In this document: positions 4,264 through 19,163 of the stretch, one piece after another
Numbering within the stretch: the first letter of the stretch is position 1
Layout of the letters: every line of letters begins with the position of its first letter
Source: Candidatus Metaruminococcus gallistercoris
Lineage (GTDB): Bacteria > Bacillota > Clostridia > Oscillospirales > Ruminococcaceae
Direction: 5' to 3'
Assembly (NCBI GenBank): GCA_904394975.1
Contig: CAJFNQ010000017.1
Coordinates: 91,641 to 155,640, forward strand
DNA: 64,000 nucleotides
The notes under the pieces: generated by a model
What the model saw: only the letters and a program-made list of their open reading frames with translations
What the model was told of the DNA's origin: nothing
Databases searched by the model: none
Program-made: the position numbers and the translations under genes

Positions 4264-6762
4264 TTATTCATCTGCTTTTTCTTCAGAAGATTCTTCTGTT
4301 TTTTCTTCTTTGTTGTTTGAAAAAACAAACTCATTGTTTTCAAACGAAACGGTTACTTTATCCCCTGCTTTGAACTTCCCTTCCAGAAATTCCTCCGAAA
4401 GTTTATCTTCAATCTGCGAGGTGATGGCACGACGAAGCGGACGTGCGCCGTAAATCGGATCATATCCAACCTCAGCAATATGCTCGATGCAGGAATCCGA
4501 GAAATCAATGCTGATTTCCAATCCTTCAACACGTTTTTTCAAACCATTCAGCATGTTGCCGGCAATCTTTTTAATGTCATCCGACGTCAGCTTATGGAAA
4601 ACAATAATATCATCAATTCGGTTTAAAAATTCAGGTTTAAAGTGCTGCTTCAATTCACCCATAACATCCGCTTTGATGTCTTTATCATCTTTTACCGCGG
4701 CTTCTTCGGAAACAAAACCAAGATTTTTTCGCTCACTGATAAGCCGTGCGCCAATATTGGATGTCATGATGATTACACTGTTTTTAAAGCTTACTCTTCT
4801 TCCCTGACTGTCGGTCAAAATGCCGTCTTCCAGAATCTGAAGCAACATATTGAACACATCAGGATGTGCTTTCTCGACCTCATCAAACAAGATAACCGAA
4901 TATGGTTTCCGACGAATTTTTTCAGTCAGCTGACCGCCATCGTCATAACCAACATACCCCGGAGGCGAACCAACCATTCTAGAGACAGAGTGTTTCTCCA
5001 TGTACTCAGACATATCGAGACGAATCATGGCGTTTTCATCGCCAAACAGTGCTTCGGCCAGTGCTTTACAGAGCTCTGTTTTACCGACACCAGTCGGACC
5101 AAGGAACAAGAAAGAGCCAATTGGACGTTTCGGGTCTTTTAATCCAATCCTGCCGCGGCGAATGGCTTTCGCTACTGAACTTACCGCTTCATCCTGACCA
5201 ATAACACGTTCATGAAGAACCTTTTCAAGGTTAAGCAGTCGTTCGCCTTCCTGTTCATTCAGCTGTTTGACCGGTATGCCAGTCCAGCTGGAAACAATAT
5301 CCGCAATATCCTCCTCGGTTACTACACCGGAGTTATGCTTATTATCTTCCTGCCAATGTTGCTTTTGTTCTTCAAGCTGATTGGTAATCTCTTTTTCTTT
5401 GTCACGAATTTTGGCAGCAGATTCAAAATCCTGCGAATTAATCGCTGCAGCTTTTTCCTCGCCAAGGCGTTTTAATTCGTTTTCCAGCTGCTGCATATCC
5501 GGCGGAGCCGTGAATGCCTGCAAACGAACTTTGGATGCAGCCTCATCAATCAGGTCGATTGCTTTATCCGGCAGATACCGGTCGTTGATATAACGTGCAG
5601 ACAATTTTACTGCCGCTTTGATCGCTTCATCAGAAATTTTCACTTTATGATGGGCTTCATATTTATCACGAAGGCCAAACAGAATGGTAACAGCATCTTC
5701 TTCCGAAGGCTCATCCACCATGACCGGTTGGAAACGACGCTCCAGAGCAGAATCCTTTTCGATGTATTTGCGGTATTCATCAATTGTAGTTGCACCAATG
5801 AGCTGTAATTCACCACGTGCAAGCTGCGGTTTTAAAATATTGGCTGCGTCTACTGCGCCCTCCGCAGCGCCGGCACCGATAATCGTGTGAATTTCATCAA
5901 TAAACAGAATGATGTTGCCGGCTTTGGTGACTTCATCCAATGCACCTTTGATCCGCTCTTCGAAATCGCCGCGGTATTTTGCACCCGCCAACATAGAAGT
6001 AATATCCAAAGAAAACACCCGTTTGTTTTTCAGTGTCTCCGGCACCTCACCGTTGACGATCTTCTGTGCCAATCCTTCAGCGATTGCTGTTTTACCAACG
6101 CCGGGTTCCCCGATCAGGCAAGGATTGTTTTTGGTTCGTCTTGAGAGAATTTGGATGACACGTTTAATCTCTTCCTGACGCCCAACCACTGGATCGATTT
6201 GGTTATCCTTTGCAAGCTGGGTTAAATCACGGCCGAATTTATTTAACTGCGGGGTATCGCCGCCTTTGGCATTTGCGCTATGGGAGCTGCCGTAGCTGTT
6301 CTCCTGCGGCCCGGATACTCCTGCTTCACCAACTTCATTGATACATTCGCTGTAAAGGTCTCTGATGTTTACACCAAATTCCTGCAGAAATGCCACTGCA
6401 TAACTGTCAGACTCCCGCAAAATTGCCATCAGTAAATGCTCGGTACCAACGTAAGTGTGTTTCAAATTACGCGCTTCGTAAATTGACATTTCCAGAATGC
6501 GTTTGCTTCGAGGGGTAAAATCAGCCGGAGACATCCGGGTTGGAATCCCCTTGCCAATCACCGTTTCAAGTTTGTGATAAACATCCTGTTTTGTAATATT
6601 ATGTTTATTTAACAGAGTACCAGCCACACCGGTTTCTTCTCCGCAAAGTGCACATAAAATATGCTCACTGCCAATATAAGTATGGCCAAGTTCTGACGCG
6701 ATCTGCATGGCGTCATTTAAAACCTTGTTGGCTTTCTCAGTAAATCCATTGAATGCATACAT
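4264..6762 (-). CDS. clpC: ATP-dependent Clp protease ATP-binding subunit ClpC
   Basis: Two Clp_N repeats, two AAA+ modules (GEPGVGKT and GPTGVGKT), a UVR linker. It is the last gene of the ctsR operon. Confidence 0.97.
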
Positions 6763-10469: not shown

Positions 10470-12461
10470 TTAATTTCTCATCAATTTGTCAGGCTCATAC
10501 TTGTTAGTAAACAAAACGGTGATGACCGCGGGAATAGTTACTGATAATACAGAAACAATAAACAGCATGAAAAAAAGCTTCCAGTTCATTAAAATCAATT
10601 GCTGATGAAACAGAATATCATTTGTCAGAATCATTAAAAGTACAGTAAACAAAAGAGAGATCACAAAGATTTTAACTGCTTCCCAGACCGATTCTACTAC
10701 GATTAGCCGGTACACAGCAACTCGTGTCGCTCCATTCGCTTTCAAAATGCAAATTTCATATTTTCTCTGCTGAGTTTCATGGATTCGAACCACCGTTACC
10801 ATAAAGAAAACGATTATAACAATCGCGATTGAAACGATTGTCATCGCAATGCGAGTCTCCTGAATACTTGTTGTCATAGTTTCAAAATCCTGATAACGAT
10901 TATACACCAACCAGTTTGAATCCAGCTCGCGGATTGCCATTTTGGCAGATTCCACCTCATCGTATCTGCCAACAACCGCCCAACAAGCACTTGGTGCCCA
11001 CGCAGATTCATTTTCTTCAAATGTTTCGGTCTCATTTTCTTTCAAAAGTGCTGAGAGCCGCTGATAAGGAACATAAATCACCATGTTTCCTGATTCAGAA
11101 TAACTGTTTTCAAAAGTTCCAGCCAATATTCCACGAACAGAAACATTAATTGTGTCAGATTGGGTAACAGCCAGATCGATTGATATACCACCCTGTTCAA
11201 TGTTTTTCAATTTCGTTGGTACTTTCAGTGATAACGTCAATTTGGTTTTATCCAGATCATCCAATCCCAGTTCCTGTGCAACTAGATAAGAAACATAAAC
11301 GCCATCTTCCTCTGATATTGTTTCATCCAGAACAATTGACTTTTGGTCCATTAACTGATCGCTGTAATATGGTACAACATAGTAACTGATGCGCTTGCCG
11401 TTTATGTCCTGCCCCTGTATTTCATAATACGGGATAACATTGCGAATCCAGGTCAGTTTTCTGATCTTTTGGTATGCATCTTCATCAAACGGAGCATCCC
11501 AAGGATCAAACATTGCCTTTGTACGCTGTTTTTCGCCATTTGTATTGGTCGCGTTGACAACAAAGATTTCCCGGTCTGAAATGCGGTTCATCAGATAATC
11601 CTGATTTGCAACGAAATTTTGGCCAAAGTCTGAACAAAGCGAGACAAACGAAACCGCAAGCGCACAAAATAAAACAATCAGGCAATTGCGCAATCTGTTT
11701 TTCCGACTTTTTGCATTTATATAATGTGCGTAAAATCCGAATGAATAATTCGTCTTATGCTCTTTACTCTCGCTTTTTTCCATCTCCAAATCATTATTTA
11801 AATCGCCGGATAAGACAACACGGCGGTCCGTTATTTGATACAGAACATCCGCACGATGATAAATATCGGGATCATGTGTAGCAATGACTACCATTTTATG
11901 TTGCTCATGCGCAATCTTCCAAAGCAGATCAAAAACCATATCCGCATTTTGTTTATCCAAGGCGGATGTCGGCTCGTCCGCAATAATCAGATCCGGGTTT
12001 TTAATCAGCGCACAGGCAATTGCGGCACGCTGTCGTTCGCCGCCTGAAAGCTGACGCGGATACATATCTGCCTTATCCCTAAGCCCGATTGTTTCCAGAA
12101 GTTCATCAACACGGCTTCGGCTTTTATCTTGTATCTTCTCAACCATCGAGAGTGAAGTCAACAGATTTTCCCGAACGTTCATGGAATCGATCAGACTGTT
12201 CTGCTGGAACACATAACCGATTCGATATCGCCGGTAGAATGCCTTTTCCCGGTCGTTTTCCGAATCTATCTGTGTCCCGTCAAATACATAAGAATGCCCT
12301 GTTTGAGAAGCAATCAGGCCGATGATGTAAAGAAGAGTGGTTTTTCCGCTTCCGGAAGGACCGGTGATTGCTACGACCTGTCCTTTTGGAAGCGTAAGCG
12401 CGGCGTTTTCAATAACCGACTTATCCCCAAAAGAAATGTTGATATGATCAAGCCGGATCAT
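10470..12461 (-). CDS. ABC transporter, fused ATP-binding domain and FtsX-type permease (MacB architecture), paralog 1
   Basis: N-terminal NBD (GPSGSGKT, LSGGERQR, LIIADEPT, ATHD), one TM helix, an extracytoplasmic domain of about 260 aa, then a C-terminal FtsX-like 3-TM bundle. AAAGAGGTG SD before the ATG at 12461. The ORF track starts at GTG 12470. Confidence 0.85.
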   Translation of the reverse strand: MIRLDHINISFGDKSVIENAALTLPKGQVVAITGPSGSGKTTLLYIIGLIASQTGHSYVFDGTQIDSENDREKAFYRRYRIGYVFQQNSLIDSMNVRENLLTSLSMVEKIQDKSRSRVDELLETIGLRDKADMYPRQLSGGERQRAAIACALIKNPDLIIADEPTSALDKQNADMVFDLLWKIAHEQHKMVVIATHDPDIYHRADVLYQITDRRVVLSGDLNNDLEMEKSESKEHKTNYSFGFYAHYINAKSRKNRLRNCLIVLFCALAVSFVSLCSDFGQNFVANQDYLMNRISDREIFVVNATNTNGEKQRTKAMFDPWDAPFDEDAYQKIRKLTWIRNVIPYYEIQGQDINGKRISYYVVPYYSDQLMDQKSIVLDETISEEDGVYVSYLVAQELGLDDLDKTKLTLSLKVPTKLKNIEQGGISIDLAVTQSDTINVSVRGILAGTFENSYSESGNMVIYVPYQRLSALLKENETETFEENESAWAPSACWAVVGRYDEVESAKMAIRELDSNWLVYNRYQDFETMTTSIQETRIAMTIVSIAIVIIVFFMVTVVRIHETQQRKYEICILKANGATRVAVYRLIVVESVWEAVKIFVISLLFTVLLMILTNDILFHQQLILMNWKLFFMLFIVSVLSVTIPAVITVLFTNKYEPDKLMRN

Positions 12462-12489
12462 AGTATTCACCTCTTTCCTTTTTATAAAG

Positions 12490-12525
12490 GAACAAAAAGG
12501 CCGCTTTTATTTTGCGGCCTTTTTC
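12490..12525 (-). terminator. Intrinsic terminator between the two ABC genes
   Basis: On the minus strand: GGCCGC-AAAATAAAA-GCGGCC followed by TTTTTGTT. It lies 10 nt after the ABC2 stop and about 30 nt before the ABC1 start. Confidence 0.7.
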
Positions 12526-12534
12526 CTTACCTGT

Positions 12535-14706
12535 CTAATTTCTCATGATAACATCGGGCTCGTATTTATTGGTCAGCACAAGCGAAATGACAGATGGTAA
12601 AACCACCGAACCAATGGAAATGAGCAGCAGCCACAACAGCGTGTCCGCTCCAAAGAAAAATCCTTCTACGATCCGTGAAGCCACTGCATATGTTCCATAT
12701 GCTAGAATCAGTGAAACCACAAAAGTCGCCACAGCCTGCAGCACCATTTCGGTCATGACCAATTTCCACACTTCTTTCCGGGTCATTCCATTTGCGCGAA
12801 GCATGGCAAATTCGTACTTTCTGCGGTCAATGATGTTGACATAAACGATTGCGGAAAGACAAAGAACAACGACAAGTACTGCCAGTGAAATATACAAAGC
12901 CACATTTTGGGTGTTTTCTGTCGATTCGGTCACAGCATGGTAATCCTGATACTCCTGTACCACGTCGATGTCAGGAGCAATTTTTGCGATTTCCGCTTTT
13001 ACTGCATCAATGTTCGCAACATCGTCTACTCTTAAATAATACGCCCAAGGACGCCAATTAAAGTAATCATGTTCTGACAAATCGGGATATAATTCACGAA
13101 GCATTTCTGGTATTTCCGTTAACGTGTTCTTGTCAATACATTCCTGAAGTATTGCGCAGGGAGCATAAACATATGCACCCATATTAAATGAAGCTGCATT
13201 TGTATATATACCTCTTACAGGCAGCGTAATCGTATCTCTTACACACCAATCCGTTGACATCGTAAAGTCATATTCTTGTCCCTCAGATGTCGTTCCTGAA
13301 GCAGTACTTTCAAATCTTTTAGCGGGTACATAAACATCTAGTGTTATAACAAGTCCCAGCACATCATCTTCAGAAATATCAATTCCAAGCGCCGTTGCTA
13401 ATTCCATGGGAATATATGCACCCTTACCAGCTTCGACTCTGGGATTAATTACTTTGCTTCCCAATTCATAAGTGCCATAACTCAAATAAGAAGATATGAC
13501 ATAATAACCTTGGCTGACTGGATATTCTTGTTGCAAATCATTATATTCAGTTTCGCTGAGCATTTGAGTTGTAAACCCAAATACACCTGTTTTTCCATTT
13601 TCATTTTCATATGAAATATAAAACGGCGGCAAGATACTTTCCGAGAGCTCATCTTCGCCAATCGCCGAAATACCTCCGTTCCCAAAACTGATTAGCGGAG
13701 CCGAAGCTTCAACAAATTCAATGTTTTTAAGCTGTTCAATTTCTTCATCAGTCAAGGAAATCGATCTCGAATCATTGGCACCGTTCCCGTAGATCGGATC
13801 GCCTTGCTTTACAGCCAAAAGTTCTCTGTTAGAAATAGATTGGTAATTCTCCTGCTGTCGCTTGCTGAAATCCTTCACATACCCGGCACTCAGTGCTGTA
13901 ACCGCAATAGACGCCGCGCAAACGATCACAGTAAGGTATTTCAGCAGCTGTCCTTTTCTTGCGCTCTTGCGCAAATACCATAGGTTCAGCCAAAATCCGC
14001 TTGTTTTCCTTTGTGCCTTCTCTTCCTTTTGTTCCGCTTCTTCCGGCTCTTCCGCAACACCCTTTATCAGCACCGCTTTTTTGTCCCGAATCTCATACAC
14101 TACCTCACACTGTTCCAGTACGACCGGGCTGTGTGTGGCTATGATAACTGTCTTCCCCGCTTTTGCCGCCGCTTTTAACAAGCTGAGAATTTCCATGGTA
14201 TTAGCTTCATCCAGTGATGAAGTCGGTTCGTCCGCAAGGATCAGCTCCGGTTCTTTTGCCAGCGCACACGCGAGCGCCGCCCTTTGCTGTTCCCCTCCGG
14301 ACAGGGTGTTCGGCCATTCCTTTCCGCGCCCCTCCAGGCCGACCTGTCTTAGCAATTCCTCCATACGGGCGTCTCCGGTATCCGCCCCCGCAAGGGCGGC
14401 GGACAGCCGGATGTTTTCCTGTACGGTCAGCCTTGTGTTCAGGTTGTTTTCCTGAAACACATAGCCGATCTTTGTTTTCCGGATCTCCCCTTTTTCTTGT
14501 TCCGACCAGAGATCCACATGTTTTCCATTGAGCTCGTACTCATAATCCAAATTGGAGGAGATCAACCCCGCACAGTACAGCAATGTTGTTTTTCCGCTGC
14601 CGGACGGACCAGTTAACGCTGTCAGTTTTCCGGACGGCGCCGTAAGGGTGCCGTCTTCGATGACACGTTCTTGGAACGCAATCTGTATTCCTTTCAGCCT
14701 TAACAT
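12535..14706 (-). CDS. ABC transporter, fused ATP-binding domain and FtsX-type permease (MacB architecture), paralog 2
   Basis: NBD motifs GPSGSGKT, LSGGEQQR, LILADEPT, ATHS. Long extracytoplasmic domain. C-terminal FtsX bundle ending TNKYEPDVIMRN (paralog 1 ends TNKYEPDKLMRN). GGAG SD before the ATG at 14706. The ORF track starts at GTG 14715. Confidence 0.85.
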   Translation of the reverse strand: MLRLKGIQIAFQERVIEDGTLTAPSGKLTALTGPSGSGKTTLLYCAGLISSNLDYEYELNGKHVDLWSEQEKGEIRKTKIGYVFQENNLNTRLTVQENIRLSAALAGADTGDARMEELLRQVGLEGRGKEWPNTLSGGEQQRAALACALAKEPELILADEPTSSLDEANTMEILSLLKAAAKAGKTVIIATHSPVVLEQCEVVYEIRDKKAVLIKGVAEEPEEAEQKEEKAQRKTSGFWLNLWYLRKSARKGQLLKYLTVIVCAASIAVTALSAGYVKDFSKRQQENYQSISNRELLAVKQGDPIYGNGANDSRSISLTDEEIEQLKNIEFVEASAPLISFGNGGISAIGEDELSESILPPFYISYENENGKTGVFGFTTQMLSETEYNDLQQEYPVSQGYYVISSYLSYGTYELGSKVINPRVEAGKGAYIPMELATALGIDISEDDVLGLVITLDVYVPAKRFESTASGTTSEGQEYDFTMSTDWCVRDTITLPVRGIYTNAASFNMGAYVYAPCAILQECIDKNTLTEIPEMLRELYPDLSEHDYFNWRPWAYYLRVDDVANIDAVKAEIAKIAPDIDVVQEYQDYHAVTESTENTQNVALYISLAVLVVVLCLSAIVYVNIIDRRKYEFAMLRANGMTRKEVWKLVMTEMVLQAVATFVVSLILAYGTYAVASRIVEGFFFGADTLLWLLLISIGSVVLPSVISLVLTNKYEPDVIMRN

Positions 14707-14755
14707 CCGCCTCACTCCTTTAGATTATGCTTTATTTTTTGTTTTAAAAGTTTGT

Positions 14756-15166
14756 TCAATTATATGTTGGATGTCCAAAGTTATACGAATTAGAAATAAG
14801 ATTATTTCCTGAATTACTCCATGTATGTCTCATAACAACCAATGGAGCAGTGGAAAGTTTCAGATTGTTTCCATATACTTTTATAGAAACTACATTGCCA
14901 AACGCTTGATTACCTGTTTTAGATGCTGATACCGATACATCCGCTCCCGTACCGTTTGATGCCCGAAACGAAGATGATGTAACAATACTTGAGCTATTCG
15001 GCATAGAAGTTAAATAGCCTGTAAAACCCGTTCCATTCACAGAAAACCAATCATTGGTTGTGACAGGACTTTGTACAACAGCTGTTGCTAAAAACATTGA
15101 GGAAAAAAGCAACATAGTAGTACTAAGAACTGCGACCATTATATGTTTTAACCGTTTTGTACTCAT
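14756..15166 (-). CDS. Small secreted protein of unknown function (Ser/Thr/Asn-rich, signal peptide)
   Basis: AAAGGAG SD before the ATG at 15166. MSTKRLKHIMVAVLSTTMLLFSSMFLATAVV is a signal peptide. No terminator before the ABC gene 49 nt downstream. Confidence 0.7.
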   Translation of the reverse strand: MSTKRLKHIMVAVLSTTMLLFSSMFLATAVVQSPVTTNDWFSVNGTGFTGYLTSMPNSSSIVTSSSFRASNGTGADVSVSASKTGNQAFGNVVSIKVYGNNLKLSTAPLVVMRHTWSNSGNNLISNSYNFGHPTYN

Positions 15167-15196
15167 TTTTATACTCCTTTCATTTTTGATATTCAC

Positions 15197-15214
15197 TTAA
15201 AAATAAACGCCCAT
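15197..15214 (-). promoter_or_regulatory. Leader mini-ORF MGVYF* with its own SD (GAAGGTG)
   Basis: Minus strand reads GAAGGTGATTCCA-ATG-GGC-GTT-TAT-TTT-TAA, ending 30 nt upstream of the main ATG. It is homologous to the element at 15815-15835. Confidence 0.4.
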
Positions 15215-15246
15215 TGGAATCACCTTCAGTATTATTTGTTAGCAAT

Positions 15247-15275
15247 ATAATAACATATTTTTTCATATTTATAAA
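15247..15275 (-). promoter_or_regulatory. Candidate sigma-A promoter (TTTATA-17-TGtTATTAT, extended -10)
   Basis: Read on the minus strand. A positional homolog of the promoter at 15880-15908. Confidence 0.5.
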
Positions 15276-15343
15276 TAAATTTTATATAAAATTACAATAT
15301 TTATTTAACAAAATATTTCAAGAAGATTTATGTAATATCGTCT

Positions 15344-15778
15344 TTATTCAGAAACATCCAATATTTCTGTGTAAAGCTCCTCTCCGGTGGAATAGGAATA
15401 CCAGGTTACTTTACACCGGGTATCCGACAACCATTCCTGTTCGACGATCTTGGCAGGCCAAGGCCGCATCCTTACGGGTTCGTCGTATAAGTACGCGGTA
15501 AGAAGGAATCCGCGTACTTTGTTGTCAAATTGAAATTTGTCAATCGTTGTAGAGAGGCCGGTCATGGATGAAACCGTAAAAGTTGACCATTCTACCTTGT
15601 CGTTTTCTCCTATCGAAGAAGAGATGACAGCACGGAAGGAACTGCTTCCAACTGCATAATCACGTACACTTACCACTTCGTTTGGTTCTTCTGCCACTGC
15701 CGGAACCGTCATAACAATCCCCAGCAGGAAAATAAGCAAAAGCGGTAATAATCTTTTTTTCAGTCTTGAGGCACACAT
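15344..15778 (-). CDS. Small secreted protein of unknown function (signal peptide, AVA-EEP cleavage-like site)
   Basis: GGAGG SD 7 nt before the ATG. The N-terminus MCASRLKKRLLPLLLIFLLGIVMTVPAVA resembles that of the neighbouring small protein (MxxxRLK). Both share the hexapeptide SSSFRA. Confidence 0.7.
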   Translation of the reverse strand: MCASRLKKRLLPLLLIFLLGIVMTVPAVAEEPNEVVSVRDYAVGSSSFRAVISSSIGENDKVEWSTFTVSSMTGLSTTIDKFQFDNKVRGFLLTAYLYDEPVRMRPWPAKIVEQEWLSDTRCKVTWYSYSTGEELYTEILDVSE

Positions 15779-15814
15779 CGTAATACCTCCTTCGCTTTCA
15801 TCATGTCAATCAAC

Positions 15815-15835
15815 CTATAAACGCATCACGCCCAT
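15815..15835 (-). promoter_or_regulatory. Leader mini-ORF MGVMRL* with its own SD (GGAGG)
   Basis: Minus strand reads GGAGGTTGATTCCA-ATG-GGC-GTG-ATG-CGT-TTA-TAG, ending 36 nt upstream of the main ATG. Confidence 0.4.
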
Positions 15836-15879
15836 TGGAATCAACCTCCAAGTTTTATTTTAGATATTTCTACACATAT

Positions 15880-15908
15880 AAAATAACATAAATTATTAAA
15901 ATTGTAAA
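15880..15908 (-). promoter_or_regulatory. Candidate sigma-A promoter (TTTACA-17-TGtTATTTT)
   Basis: Read on the minus strand. Homologous to the promoter at 15247-15275. Confidence 0.5.
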
Positions 15909-15965
15909 TAAATTTTATGCAAAATGTTAACATTGATGCACGGTCAAATTTTTATATATATAATA

Positions 15966-16018
15966 AAAAACACTCTCTTGCCCGGCAAATACTACCAAAG
16001 CAAAAGAGTGTTTTTTTT
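15966..16018 (-). terminator. Intrinsic terminator after yunB
   Basis: On the minus strand a 10-bp stem CACTCTTTTG/CAAGAGAGTG (one G-U pair) with a 20-nt loop, followed by TTTTTTATTA. Confidence 0.6.
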
Positions 16019-16042
16019 AAATCATTCAGATAACAACATTTT

Positions 16043-16744
16043 TTATTCGCTTTCCATCAGATACGGCAATGCCGTTTCGCTCTGCCCTAAAATTTGTGCA
16101 TATGTATCCGGTACCTTTCCAACAACCATGGTTTCAGCCAAAATATACTCCGTATTGATTACAACATCAGCAGAATAACCCGGAAGGATGGCTTTCGCTT
16201 CGATTTCTGCTTTTAACACAATTTGATGAAGCGTTTGATTGATACCAGCCGATGAAAACCGGCTTTCTGTCACAACACGAACACTGCCAGCCGGAATAAT
16301 TTTAATTTCAACATTCGGACCACGTCCGCTAAGCAATCCATTGCCAAAAAGAGTTCCAAGTGGAATGTAAACCGACTGGTTTTCACCTTTTGAAAGAACA
16401 TCTACAATTTGCTGTGTTACCTGTGTTTGCACACGATTAATAGAAACTGTATTGGATTCAATCGATGTAATCTCTCCGTTTTGGTCGGTTGAAAGAGTTA
16501 CATAACTTTCATAATTTCCTGCTGTCTCCAACACATCGGTAACAGCCTGGTTGATTATACCCGTCATTGCCGTTTTTACTTGATATCCAGCCATGGATGT
16601 AATGACAGGGCGAATGGAGTGATCCAGCCAAATACACAGCAACAGAAGAAAAACGCCAAACCATAATATTTTATATGACTTTTTGGCCGGAGATATAATC
16701 CTTCGCCGATGGATAAACCGCAATCTTCTTCTGTGCCACGCCAT
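16043..16744 (-). CDS. yunB: Sporulation protein YunB
   Basis: Arg-rich N-terminus, a single TM helix, and YunB-like core (IRPVITSMAGYQVKTAMTGIINQAV..., IKIIPAGSV). GGTGGTGAG SD before the ATG at 16744. Confidence 0.85.
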   Translation of the reverse strand: MAWHRRRLRFIHRRRIISPAKKSYKILWFGVFLLLLCIWLDHSIRPVITSMAGYQVKTAMTGIINQAVTDVLETAGNYESYVTLSTDQNGEITSIESNTVSINRVQTQVTQQIVDVLSKGENQSVYIPLGTLFGNGLLSGRGPNVEIKIIPAGSVRVVTESRFSSAGINQTLHQIVLKAEIEAKAILPGYSADVVINTEYILAETMVVGKVPDTYAQILGQSETALPYLMESE

Positions 16745-16796
16745 TTTCTCACCACCACGTTGCAATATATGCCGGATGGTAAAAAAACGTGAATAA

Positions 16797-19163
16797 TTAT
16801 TTCAATTCGGCGATGGTCACACCACTTTCTCCTTCACCATAAACACCCAACCGATAGGTACGAACACTCGGATGATTTTTTAGCCGCTGCTGAACCGCTT
16901 TCCGCAACGCTCCAGTTCCTTTTCCATGAATGATATTGATTTGGTGGATACCACTCATAACCGCATTATCAATAAACATATCCAAATCCATGAGCGCTTC
17001 TTCAACCGTTTCGCCCCGTAAATCTACTTCAGTTGTCACCTTGCGTTCCGCGTTAGAACGAACGTTTCGGGTAGTTTTCCCCTGAAACTGTACGGCTTTT
17101 TCCTTTAACAAACGCAAGTTAGAAATTGGCACACGGGTTTTTATAATTCCTGCCTGCACCAACACATTTCCGGAAGCGTCCGGCTCCTGCAAAACAGTGC
17201 CTTTTTTATCAATATCAAAAATCAGCACGACGTCACCTTTTTTTAAAGGTCTTGGCAGAACATAATCGGTATTTTTACGCTCGGTAACGGGATTCGCCAT
17301 ATCATAAAGTTTATCCATACGCCCTTTCAAGCCGGATTTTGCCTGAAAGGTGCGAATCGAAAACTCTTCCCGTTCCTTCTGCTTCCGGAGCTGATCCAAT
17401 TCGTCCATCAATTGCTGTGAAGCAGCGCGAACATCATCCACAATTTTTTTGGCAGTTTCTCTCGCGCGCTGAATTTCCTGCTCGGCCTGTTTTTCAGCAT
17501 TTTTACGCTGACGTTCCAATTCCTCGCGCATACGCTTGACTTCTACACTTTTTTCGGAAAGTTCGGTTTCAGCATGTTCATAGCGTTGGCGAGAGGCCTC
17601 CAGTGAATCCACAACTTCCTCAAAGCGCTTGTTTTCGGTGGAAACTAACTGACCGGCTTCTTCAATGATATCCGGCGCAAGGCCAAGTCGTCTGGAAATG
17701 GCAAACGCATTCGAACGACCCGGAACACCAATCAATAAACGATAAGTAGGCATGAGGGTTTGGATATCAAATTCACAGCAAGCATTTTCTACCCTGGATG
17801 TTTGCAACGCATACATTTTCAATTCTGCATAATGAGTCGTAGCGGCAAGTTTGCATCCAATGGTACGAAACTGTTCCAAAATAGCAGTTGCCAGTGCTGC
17901 ACCTTCTACCGGATCGGTACCGGAGCCGAGTTCATCCAACAAAACCAATGAATGTTCCGTAACATGCCGCAAAATAAATACAATATTTTTCATATGAGCA
18001 GAAAAAGTAGAAAGACTTTGCTCAATGCTCTGCTCATCACCAATGTCTACGAGAACACGGTCAAACACCGAAATGCGGCTTCCCTCTCCGGCGGGGATCA
18101 ATAAACCGCACATGGTCATAATGGTTAATAACCCAATCGTTTTTAGGGTTACTGTTTTTCCACCGGTGTTCGGGCCAGTAATAACGAGTTGTTCAAACTC
18201 TTCTCCTAATTCCAAATCAATCGGCACTACTTTATCCGATGGAATCAAAGGATGTCTTGCCTTTTTTAACAGAATACGCCCGTCATCCGCTACAACGGGT
18301 GTTGTTGCTTTTATATCCAGCGCATATTCTGACTTGGCAAAAATCACATTTAAAACAACCGAGTAATCAAAATCCGCCTGAATTTCTTCTGCGACATCTG
18401 CGCACAAAGCAGAAAGTTCAGCAAGAATGCGCTCAATTTCTTCATTTTCCTGCGCTTGAAGAACACGAACTTCGTTGTTTACTTCAACAACCGAAACCGG
18501 TTCAATAAACATGGTGGCGCCACTGGCAGATGTATCGTGTACAAGACCTGGTACTTCATTGCGATATTCCGCTTTTACCGGAACAACAAAACGCCCGTCA
18601 CGAATGGTGACAATTGCATCCTGCAAATATTTCTGATACGAAGGCGAGCGAATCATTTTATCAAGGTGATCCCGGGCTTTTGTATGAAGATTGCGAATTT
18701 TTCTGCGTATGGAGAATAATGCGTCACTCGCGGAATCATCGATTTCATCCTCAGAAAGAATCGAATCAAAAATGCGTTCTTCCAATTGTTTTCGCTGAGC
18801 CAACGCTTCAAAAAACGGTTTTAAAGACCCAACAGTATCTGTTTGCCCTTTCCACTCCAACAATAACCGCGCCTGACGCAAAACAGCTGCTACGGAAAGC
18901 AAATCTAAATTCGACAAAACGCCGCCTGCTGAACATCGTTTCAAAAACGATTCAGGATTTTTTAAATTTTGAAAACGCGGAAGGCCAAAACGCAAGGAAA
19001 GAGATAGCGCATCCGAAGTTTGTTCAACCAATCGAGAAACTTCCTCAAATTTATAGCTTGGTTCGAGCGATTCAATCCGATCTTTCGCTTCGTCAATTAC
19101 CGCTTTTTCTGAAACTTTATGTAATATTTTGTCAAGTTCAAGCGCTTTACAGTGCTTTTTCAT
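16797..19163 (-). CDS. mutS2: Endonuclease MutS2
   Basis: MutS ATPase domain (ITGPNTGGKT, LLDELGSGTDP), a coiled-coil region, and a C-terminal Smr domain (IIHGKGTGALR). Confidence 0.96.
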   Translation of the reverse strand: MKKHCKALELDKILHKVSEKAVIDEAKDRIESLEPSYKFEEVSRLVEQTSDALSLSLRFGLPRFQNLKNPESFLKRCSAGGVLSNLDLLSVAAVLRQARLLLEWKGQTDTVGSLKPFFEALAQRKQLEERIFDSILSEDEIDDSASDALFSIRRKIRNLHTKARDHLDKMIRSPSYQKYLQDAIVTIRDGRFVVPVKAEYRNEVPGLVHDTSASGATMFIEPVSVVEVNNEVRVLQAQENEEIERILAELSALCADVAEEIQADFDYSVVLNVIFAKSEYALDIKATTPVVADDGRILLKKARHPLIPSDKVVPIDLELGEEFEQLVITGPNTGGKTVTLKTIGLLTIMTMCGLLIPAGEGSRISVFDRVLVDIGDEQSIEQSLSTFSAHMKNIVFILRHVTEHSLVLLDELGSGTDPVEGAALATAILEQFRTIGCKLAATTHYAELKMYALQTSRVENACCEFDIQTLMPTYRLLIGVPGRSNAFAISRRLGLAPDIIEEAGQLVSTENKRFEEVVDSLEASRQRYEHAETELSEKSVEVKRMREELERQRKNAEKQAEQEIQRARETAKKIVDDVRAASQQLMDELDQLRKQKEREEFSIRTFQAKSGLKGRMDKLYDMANPVTERKNTDYVLPRPLKKGDVVLIFDIDKKGTVLQEPDASGNVLVQAGIIKTRVPISNLRLLKEKAVQFQGKTTRNVRSNAERKVTTEVDLRGETVEEALMDLDMFIDNAVMSGIHQINIIHGKGTGALRKAVQQRLKNHPSVRTYRLGVYGEGESGVTIAELK

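Follow-up and report, generated by a model that had tools for sequence, protein, structure and literature searches.

What is a second translation start, placed in front of the genuine one and opening a reading frame of only a few codons, kept for? The question is raised by two adjacent genes for small secreted proteins in Candidatus Metaruminococcus gallistercoris, each of which has, between its promoter and its start codon, a Shine-Dalgarno (SD) sequence and an ATG that begin a short open reading frame (mini-ORF). We examined it in a stretch of 64,000 nucleotides of contig CAJFNQ010000017.1 (positions 91,641 to 155,640; hereafter the window, with coordinates in its own numbering) and at related loci. 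We found that the start site is held invariant across species while the encoded mini-peptide is free to vary, and we tentatively read the element as a ribosome-docking site close to the 5′ end of the mRNA, related to the mRNA stabilizers of the STAB-SD type. The two units, which we term cassettes A and B, consist of the following parts:

15880-15918, minus strand: promoter of cassette A, found by a consensus scan, with the block ATAAAATTTATTTA at 15918-15905, a -35 element TTTACA at 15908-15903 and an extended -10 element TGtTATTTT at 15888-15880.
15845-15849, minus strand: SD sequence GGAGG of mini-ORF A.
15832-15843, minus strand: invariant core TGATTCCAATGG of cassette A, made up of spacer, start codon and +4 G.
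15815-15835, minus strand: mini-ORF A, ATG GGC GTG ATG CGT TTA TAG (MGVMRL*), ending 36 nt before the start of gene A.
15344-15778, minus strand: gene A, encoding a secreted protein of 144 aa with a signal peptide, with its own ribosome-binding site (RBS) GAAGGAGG at 15793-15786.
15247-15285, minus strand: promoter of cassette B, found by a consensus scan, with the block ATAAAATTTATTTA at 15285-15272, a -35 element TTTATA at 15275-15270 and an extended -10 element TGtTATTAT at 15255-15247.
15223-15227, minus strand: SD sequence GAAGG of mini-ORF B, weak alone and contiguous with UGAUUC.
15211-15222, minus strand: invariant core TGATTCCAATGG of cassette B.
15197-15214, minus strand: mini-ORF B, ATG GGC GTT TAT TTT TAA (MGVYF*), in frame with gene B and ending 30 nt before its start.
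14756-15166, minus strand: gene B, encoding a secreted protein of 136 aa with a signal peptide, of the same family as gene A, with its own RBS AAAGGAG at 15180-15174.

The initial annotation had described the two upstream regions as homologous, and they align with a mean column identity of 74%, both holding ATAAAATTTATTTA, ATGTTATT and a 17-nt identical core, with GTGATTCCAATGGGCGT as the core sequence common to the two. The SD-ATG-GGC-GT core that it had reported in both leaders is borne out by the 15-mer TGATTCCAATGGGCG, which occurs at exactly two sites in the window (15208-15222 and 15829-15843, both belonging to minus-strand genes), with no third site at up to two mismatches across the 64 kb; the shorter 10-mer GATTCCRATG matches the window at the same two places only. 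Its other observations also held: MGVMRL* and MGVYF* stop 36 and 30 nt short of the main starts, the MxxxRLK N-termini and the SSSFRA hexapeptide are found in both proteins, and the sigma-A-like promoters with extended -10 elements were both recovered by the consensus scan (TTTACA-17-TATTTT with TG at 15908-15880 for cassette A; TTTATA-17-TATTAT with TG at 15275-15247 for cassette B). An alternative promoter of cassette A (TTAACA-18-TACAAT at 15930-15901) lies 5′ of the core as well.

Beyond the window, we compared strains of the window species with at least four other lineages of Oscillospiraceae/Ruminococcaceae (loci numbered from L001), searching with a closer subset of the protein family, as the family-wide alignment is too divergent to serve as a query. 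Of the 24 fetched loci, 23 contain GATTCCRATG, with a single copy for each family gene, always 5′ of it and on its coding strand, and with no copy elsewhere in these loci, which is more than chance would give. Four of the loci that hold it come from other species and have otherwise unalignable flanks. Nine leaders anchored on the motif (from the window species, L001/L002, L010/L013 of an Oscillospiraceae metagenome-assembled genome (MAG), L011 of a Ruminococcaceae rumen MAG, and L014) have tGATTCCrATGg and an upstream G-rich tract in common and nothing else that can be aligned, and all of 19 leader haplotypes, from at least five lineages, carry tGATTCCrATGg unchanged between flanks that cannot be aligned on either side. 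Because the core is conserved across species while its flanks drift, it is under selection, as judged from sequence comparison. The sole locus without the exact motif is L012, which keeps TTCC-TT-AATGGGC, has lost the SD and has one ABC gene only; its degenerate leader (L012 1330-1460) retains TTCCTTAATGGGC, followed by a 13-codon ORF. A literature search for the literal motif returned only unrelated primers.

The reading frame behind the conserved start is as variable as the start is constant, and the leaders encode the following:

Window, cassette A: MGVMRL*.
Window, cassette B: MGVYF*.
L001: MGHKNLN*.
L002: MGHKNSN*.
L006, cassette A2: MV* (AUG GUU UAA).
L010: MCQKTT*.
L014: MGRELRWTKT*.
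L011: 21 codons, ending 4 nt before the main GTG.
L009: no stop (TAA changed to GAA), the frame reading into the gene.

Other alleles of gene A within the window species have MDMMFL* and MDVMFL*. The mini-ORF has 2, 5, 6, 7, 10 or 21 codons or runs on into the gene, and the at least ten different mini-peptides, of 2-21 residues, have no conserved arrest sequence. Among the alleles of gene A, no other part of the leader has diverged as far as the mini-ORF (5 of its 15 nt differ, compared with 4 of 36 nt beyond it), and the peptide differs at three of five residues. Across the family genes, 48-70 nt separate the upstream AUG from the main start codon, and between the mini-ORF stop and the main start there are 4 to 52 nt. 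As the SD is kept while the length and the peptide of the mini-ORF are free, selection therefore acts on the translation start site and not on the peptide. Minimal ORFs of this kind are known as the bar minigenes of phage lambda and as the start-stops seen in enterobacterial ribosome profiling; the L006 A2 leader resembles them, and their function, if any, would likewise lie in ribosome occupancy rather than in the product. They are found in Gram-negative bacteria or phages and have no conserved spacer motif, whereas the ORF here spans 2-21 codons behind an invariant one.

The tract 5′ of the core is maintained as an SD while varying in both sequence and register (GGAGGtt, GAAGGt, GGGAGAt, GGGGGAt, GGGGAc, AAGGAGAt, GGAAGt, AAGGGAAt and AGGGt). 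With the core masked and pairing restricted to the anti-SD ACCUCCUUU, in 10 of the 11 haplotypes the variable flank by itself is among the best 0.6-6% of random ATG contexts in the window. An SD that changes in sequence and register, but always stands at ribosomal distance from an invariant ATG, therefore points to ribosome binding rather than to a DNA operator. In bacterial 16S rRNA in general, the tail beyond the anti-SD reads GGAUCA (positions 1529-1534), and UGAUUC of the core is complementary to it, one of the pairs being G-U, and lies in the register of the SD core, which accounts for the gain of an extended duplex. When this full tail is used (assumed as the 16S 3′ end and not the host's own sequence, a condition that applies to every energy given for it), the predicted duplexes have -12.9 to -17.8 kcal/mol in 11 of 11 haplotypes; the value of -12.9 kcal/mol is reached by 1% of random ATGs of the window, and the median of long ORFs is -10.3. 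In all nine leaders for which both were computed, the mini-ORF RBS pairs more strongly than that of the gene itself, with -15.8 kcal/mol for mini-ORF A against -14.1 for the RBS of gene A. The duplex of mini-ORF B amounts to -12.9 kcal/mol with the full tail, -5.3 with the core anti-SD only and -4.2 for the variable flank alone, and cassette B, with its weak SD GAAGG, is accordingly predicted by the pairing model to depend on the UGAUUC extension.

Promoters stand upstream of the motif in other lineages too: in L014, TTGACT-16-TATAAT (11 of 12 matches) ends 24 nt before it, and in L010, TTGATT-17-TAAAAT lies 5′ of it. Together, the predicted promoters of the window, L014 and L010 place the motif at about +17 to +42. 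A promoter hidden inside the motif itself (for SigA, SigH or a leaderless transcript) was considered by reading the sequence and rejected, as the spacings do not fit. RNA from one lineage bears on the same point. The small gene of L011 is covered at a word depth of 3-29 in 12 bovine or anaerobic-digester metatranscriptomes, and the 250 nt upstream are uncovered; two L011-type contigs, from two metatranscriptomes, hold the motif along with 19 and 28 nt upstream of it, and RNA contigs start 19-28 nt 5′ of the motif or at the motif, never further upstream. A transcription start downstream of the mini-ORF, which the initial annotation had regarded as telling against its proposal, is hence not what is seen in the sole lineage with RNA data. 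Over L011 5900-6710, cover stops or falls several-fold 50-150 nt past the small gene, into the ABC gene, at a place where no terminator is predicted, which suggests differential stability or processing. The motif is therefore transcribed, its promoter is close, and the segment of the small gene is more abundant than that of the ABC gene. The digester RNA runs gave only generic ABC matches to L010, and no RNA run had a match to L014.

Our preferred, if still tentative, explanation is that each gene of the family bears in its leader an element composed of a variable purine-rich SD followed by an invariant (U)GAUUCC, R, AUG and G, situated about 17-42 nt past the predicted transcription start and 48-70 nt before the real start codon, for which the mini-peptide would be irrelevant. 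Acting in cis, such an element would trap a ribosome on the RNA close to its 5′ end, and UGAUUC would extend the SD duplex into 16S positions 1529-1534 (GGAUCA) to give very strong docking, for which a 16S end ...GGAUCACCUCCUUUCU would fit. The docked or initiating ribosome would then shield the transcript from 5′-to-3′ decay, as do STAB-SD, the polypurine stabilizers and hbs in Bacillus, and could also serve the main RBS, by holding the short leader open; the predicted outcome is more mRNA for the secreted protein than for the ABC proteins, and the greater RNA depth over the small gene than over the ABC gene is an indirect hint of an effect on stability.

There are precedents in Bacillus. In B. 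subtilis, according to PMC5737220, a ribosome on a strong SD-like sequence of the 5′ untranslated region (UTR) stabilizes kilobases downstream and blocks RNase J1, even without a start codon, and the STAB-SD of cry3Aa is described as acting likewise in PMC12970973 (citing Agaisse and Lereclus 1996). With the STAB-SD of B. thuringiensis cry3Aa, the B. subtilis polypurine stabilizer, the ermC leader and the hbs SD, the present element shares an SD-like sequence in the 5′ UTR that is distinct from the RBS of the gene and complementary to 16S rRNA (here, to the assumed tail). The STAB-SD-type elements sit close to the 5′ end of the mature transcript, in abundantly expressed Firmicute genes, where they allow the bound ribosome to block RNase J1 (PMC5737220; PMC12970973); the present element also goes with a well-expressed transcript, and its predicted position of about +17 to +42 would resemble theirs. 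The differences are that the start codon, the +4 G and the 6-nt spacer are invariant here, whereas the known stabilizers need none of them, that a mini-ORF follows, and that the element is confined to a single gene family and moves along with every cassette.

Several observations weigh against such a docking site. The sequence of the 16S tail is assumed from bacteria in general, and Clostridia normally use only ACCUCCUUU as the anti-SD (PMC10783764). If pairing with 16S rRNA were the sole constraint, UGAUCC should serve no worse, but the second U is the same in every leader, and the invariance of GAUUCC, AUG and the +4 G exceeds what docking requires. A local SD::UUCC hairpin, which could account for the UUCC, occurs in most leaders, but its predicted energy is only -0.7 to -4.7 kcal/mol and cassette B lacks it; we rejected it as the main constraint for these reasons. 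The RNA data are assembler contigs and not reads, and the ends of contigs are not true 5′ ends; several L011 contig ends at 5918-5942, at or just past the motif, are probably branch points between strains with different flanks rather than RNA ends. For the window species itself, chicken-gut metatranscriptome contigs cover gene A at low depth and run through the terminator of the preceding gene yunB, and are therefore uninformative on where transcription starts.

As docking leaves the extra constraints on spacer, AUG and +4 G unexplained, a trans-acting reader stays a serious rival, although we hold it to be unlikely; a binding site for a protein or an RNA had been the alternative put forward in the initial annotation. 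On this account, a dedicated factor, either an RNA-binding protein or the seed of a small RNA (sRNA), reads GAUUCCRAUGG, opens or closes the upstream start and so controls the stability or translation of the cassette mRNAs as a small post-transcriptional regulon. The invariance of spacer, start codon and +4 G beyond the needs of docking would then be accounted for, and the stretch of single-stranded conservation, about 11-13 nt, matches an sRNA seed or a protein site in length. The motif is confined to the family, being absent from the other RBSs of the window and from the rest of the fetched loci. No regulator or recombinase gene is conserved beside the operon among the compared loci, where the neighbors vary by lineage (yunB in the window, a Prok-JAB protein in L001 and L010, an integrase fragment and a tRNA gene in L011), and a distant factor is therefore plausible. 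No candidate for that factor was found, and complementary or antisense copies of the motif in the window and the fetched loci are at chance level. A trans-acting factor would moreover add to the docking model rather than replace it, because the upheld SD and AUG show that ribosome access is itself selected. A bolder form of the idea, which we consider more doubtful still, is that GAUUCCRAUGG is the address label of a new post-transcriptional system of Oscillospiraceae, in which a factor would read the decoy mini-ORF start and set the stability or translation of all the strain-variable cassettes that precede the MacB-type ABC pair.

A different kind of explanation places the role of the motif in the DNA, and here the makeup of the locus among strains matters. 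The stretch between yunB and the ABC genes is strain-variable (window 14717-15342; L005 3400-3435; L006 6928-7600; also in L009), and the cassettes occur in four combinations:

Cassette A only: L005 and one RNA-contig joint.
Cassettes A and B: this window.
Cassettes A and A2, the commonest: at least 23 contigs.
Cassette B′ only: L009 and one RNA-contig joint.

The loss of cassette B in L005 is flanked by TAAAG microhomology, and the L022 leader is a mosaic that joins an upstream flank of the L009 type to a mini-ORF and gene of the A type, with the breakpoint inside GATTCCAATGGGC. The varying cassette content and this mosaic therefore indicate a reshuffled array and not a frozen duplication. 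The locus consists of paralogous, swappable cassettes, each with its own promoter and leader; of the old tandem duplication proposed in the initial annotation, the paralogy of the genes stands, while the strains with A, A+B, A+A2 or B′ and the L022 mosaic speak against the rest. The motif could in principle be a repressor operator that forms a roadblock just past the promoter, as its location at +17 to +42 from the predicted starts would allow, or a preferred site of crossover between cassettes, which would suit the reshuffled array, the breakpoint of L022 and the integrase-family fragment and tRNA gene that adjoin the L011 operon. We regard either role as improbable. The motif is not a dyad, neither a second copy (at up to four mismatches) nor repeated half-sites were found within 200 nt on either strand, and the variant CCGATGG breaks the only small palindrome, CCAATGG. 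The cassette loss in L005 is flanked by TAAAG and not by the motif, the genes beside the operon include no conserved recombinase or regulator, and a breakpoint within the sole island of identity is what ordinary homologous exchange would be expected to give. A DNA-level role leaves the variable SD at ribosomal distance from an invariant ATG unexplained.

The upstream AUG might instead be the start of an ancestral, longer pre-protein, still used as an alternative start or left as a relic, with the intervening stops being recent. The mini-ORF is in the frame of the gene in six of nine leaders where three are expected (binomial p about 0.04, for leaders that are not independent), and in L009 the frame is open, its 152-aa product is called by the gene finder and the internal RBS is weakened to AAAGGAA. 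In that locus (L009 264-722, P0008) the upstream AUG reads into gene B′, giving a pre-protein that begins MGIYFEVNIKNERNIE-MSTKRLK. One or two stops nevertheless separate the two starts in most leaders, three leaders are out of frame, and the extension has no conserved residues; a relic would decay like the flanks, yet the core is invariant across species. These points leave an ancestral start only a slim chance. In cassette B of the window, a GTG follows the stop of the mini-ORF directly and in frame (TAA GTG, window 15194-15199) and opens a 146-aa form of gene B (ORF 14756-15196); stop-start coupling is possible there, without conservation in other leaders.

Last comes the proposal of the initial annotation that the mini-ORFs encode regulatory leader peptides of the erm/cat type, in which a drug or metabolite makes the ribosome stall as it synthesizes the mini-peptide, and the stalled ribosome remodels the leader and switches on the downstream gene. 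The conserved SD and start codon and the presence of a mini-ORF within the leader would suit it, as in the stalling leaders of inducible resistance (ermC/ErmCL, catA86, cmlA, ErmDL and BmrB-bmrCD), where, too, the leader of an operon contains a short ORF preceded by an SD of its own, the bmrCD operon encoding an ABC transporter, as here. Those leaders encode conserved arrest peptides and can adopt alternative hairpins, which mask the downstream SD or act as a terminator; the leaders of the present family lack both. The peptide is free in length and sequence (2-21 codons, with one leader reading Met-Val-stop and one fused to the gene), and the interval between its stop and the main start varies as noted above. 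The window leaders fold no better than shuffled sequences (z-scores -0.66 and +0.59), the other nine leaders have no shared fold and no common long-range partner of the motif (a comparison made without a shuffle control), and no terminator was found between promoter and gene in the window or in the other leaders scanned. The mini-ORF codons GUGAUGC have a pairing partner, GUAUUACG beside the main start, in leader A only, and in L001 and L002 CCAAUG pairs with a downstream CAUUGG; neither pairing exists in other leaders, and a reproducible SD-sequestering fold between mini-ORF and gene was not found. Rfam 15 gave no relevant match at E up to 10 for window 14000-17000 and, for L001, L009, L010, L011 and L014, nothing at the gathering score except a tRNA. 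A hairpin resembling the ACGR motif of guanidine-II (mini-ykkC) was rejected, since GGGGACGAUUCC occurs in L001 only, the others have UGA loops and there is no Rfam match. The downstream genes encode a secreted all-beta protein and then MacB-type ABC/FtsX fusions; none is a resistance gene against ribosome-targeting drugs, of the ribosome-protecting or rRNA-modifying kind. The unconstrained peptide and the lack of an Rfam match, terminator and shared fold therefore exclude a switch of the erm/cat type, a very unlikely reading that the comparative sequence data have largely refuted.

The surroundings of the cassettes in the window, all on the minus strand, are transcribed in the order mutS2, yunB, terminator, gene A, gene B and two MacB-type ABC genes:

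5′ of the terminator, minus strand: yunB, a sporulation gene (Pfam Spore_YunB).
15965-16016, minus strand: intrinsic terminator hairpin of yunB, followed by a U-run (-28.4 kcal/mol, z-score -6.0, with 0 of 200 shuffles as good).
10470-14715, minus strand: a tandem pair of MacB-type ABC proteins, both consisting of an ATPase and a fused FtsX permease.

The yunB terminator isolates the transcription unit of gene A. The two ABC genes (14715-12535, 726 aa; 12470-10470, 666 aa) are paralogous and 31% identical to one another. Wherever the sequence is long enough, the layout in the compared loci is promoter, leader, small secreted protein, an ABC/FtsX fusion of 709-740 aa and then one of 655-663 aa. 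Directly upstream of the operon in L011 are a tRNA gene (5201-5274, 66 bits) and a fragment of the phage-integrase family (5122-5736), and the operon may therefore sit on an integrated element there. A second conserved block, GTAGCTAT..TTTGGATATATT, lies 40-80 nt 5′ of the -35 element in three lineages (L001 1600-1660, L010 5795-5850 and L014 4800-4850), and L001 has in addition a direct repeat, TTTGGATAT / TTTTGATAT, with 21-nt spacing; this block, which is absent from the window and L011, may be the site of a regulator.

The secreted proteins form a rare family. Genes A and B match no Pfam family, and their direct similarity is weak (19% identity, E 0.002); their homology follows from a third paralog, A2 (P0017), which links both, with 44% identity to A (6e-42) and 33% to B (7e-12), and which is also recovered with a profile of the B family. 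In word-based searches, 5.8 billion proteins yielded only near-identical copies and one relative of B with 51% identity, and a full HMMER scan of 1.84 billion representatives gave 12 matches, namely nine secreted proteins (116-146 aa) and three large repeat proteins. In the latter, from metagenomes, the domain of about 100 aa that makes up the small secreted proteins is repeated 16 times (P0010, 2247 aa), ten times (P0013, 1229 aa) and eight times (P0018, 1130 aa); P0010 has no match to a Pfam family. The AlphaFold model of the gene B protein is an all-beta sandwich (mean pLDDT 79), for which a search of PDB structures gave no significant match, the best being lmo2686 (4k15) at E 0.03. Relatives of the family were not found in a search of a plasmid collection. 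Gene A is shortened to 106 aa by a premature stop in L015, L016 and L018 (2374-2694 in each) and in L024 (2207-2527), where A2 and the ABC genes are intact.

The leaders offer a natural example of selection on a start site itself, its product being unselected, in uncultured Firmicutes of gut and rumen, in which almost nothing is known of post-transcriptional control. The motif also serves as a practical tag for finding a fast-evolving and nearly undetectable family of secreted proteins, along with its swappable cassettes beside MacB-type transporters. If the element is indeed a docking stabilizer, it would extend the STAB-SD principle from Bacillus to Clostridia and would provide a compact part of 13-30 nt for raising expression in anaerobes; if a dedicated factor reads the spacer, it would mark a new small regulon.

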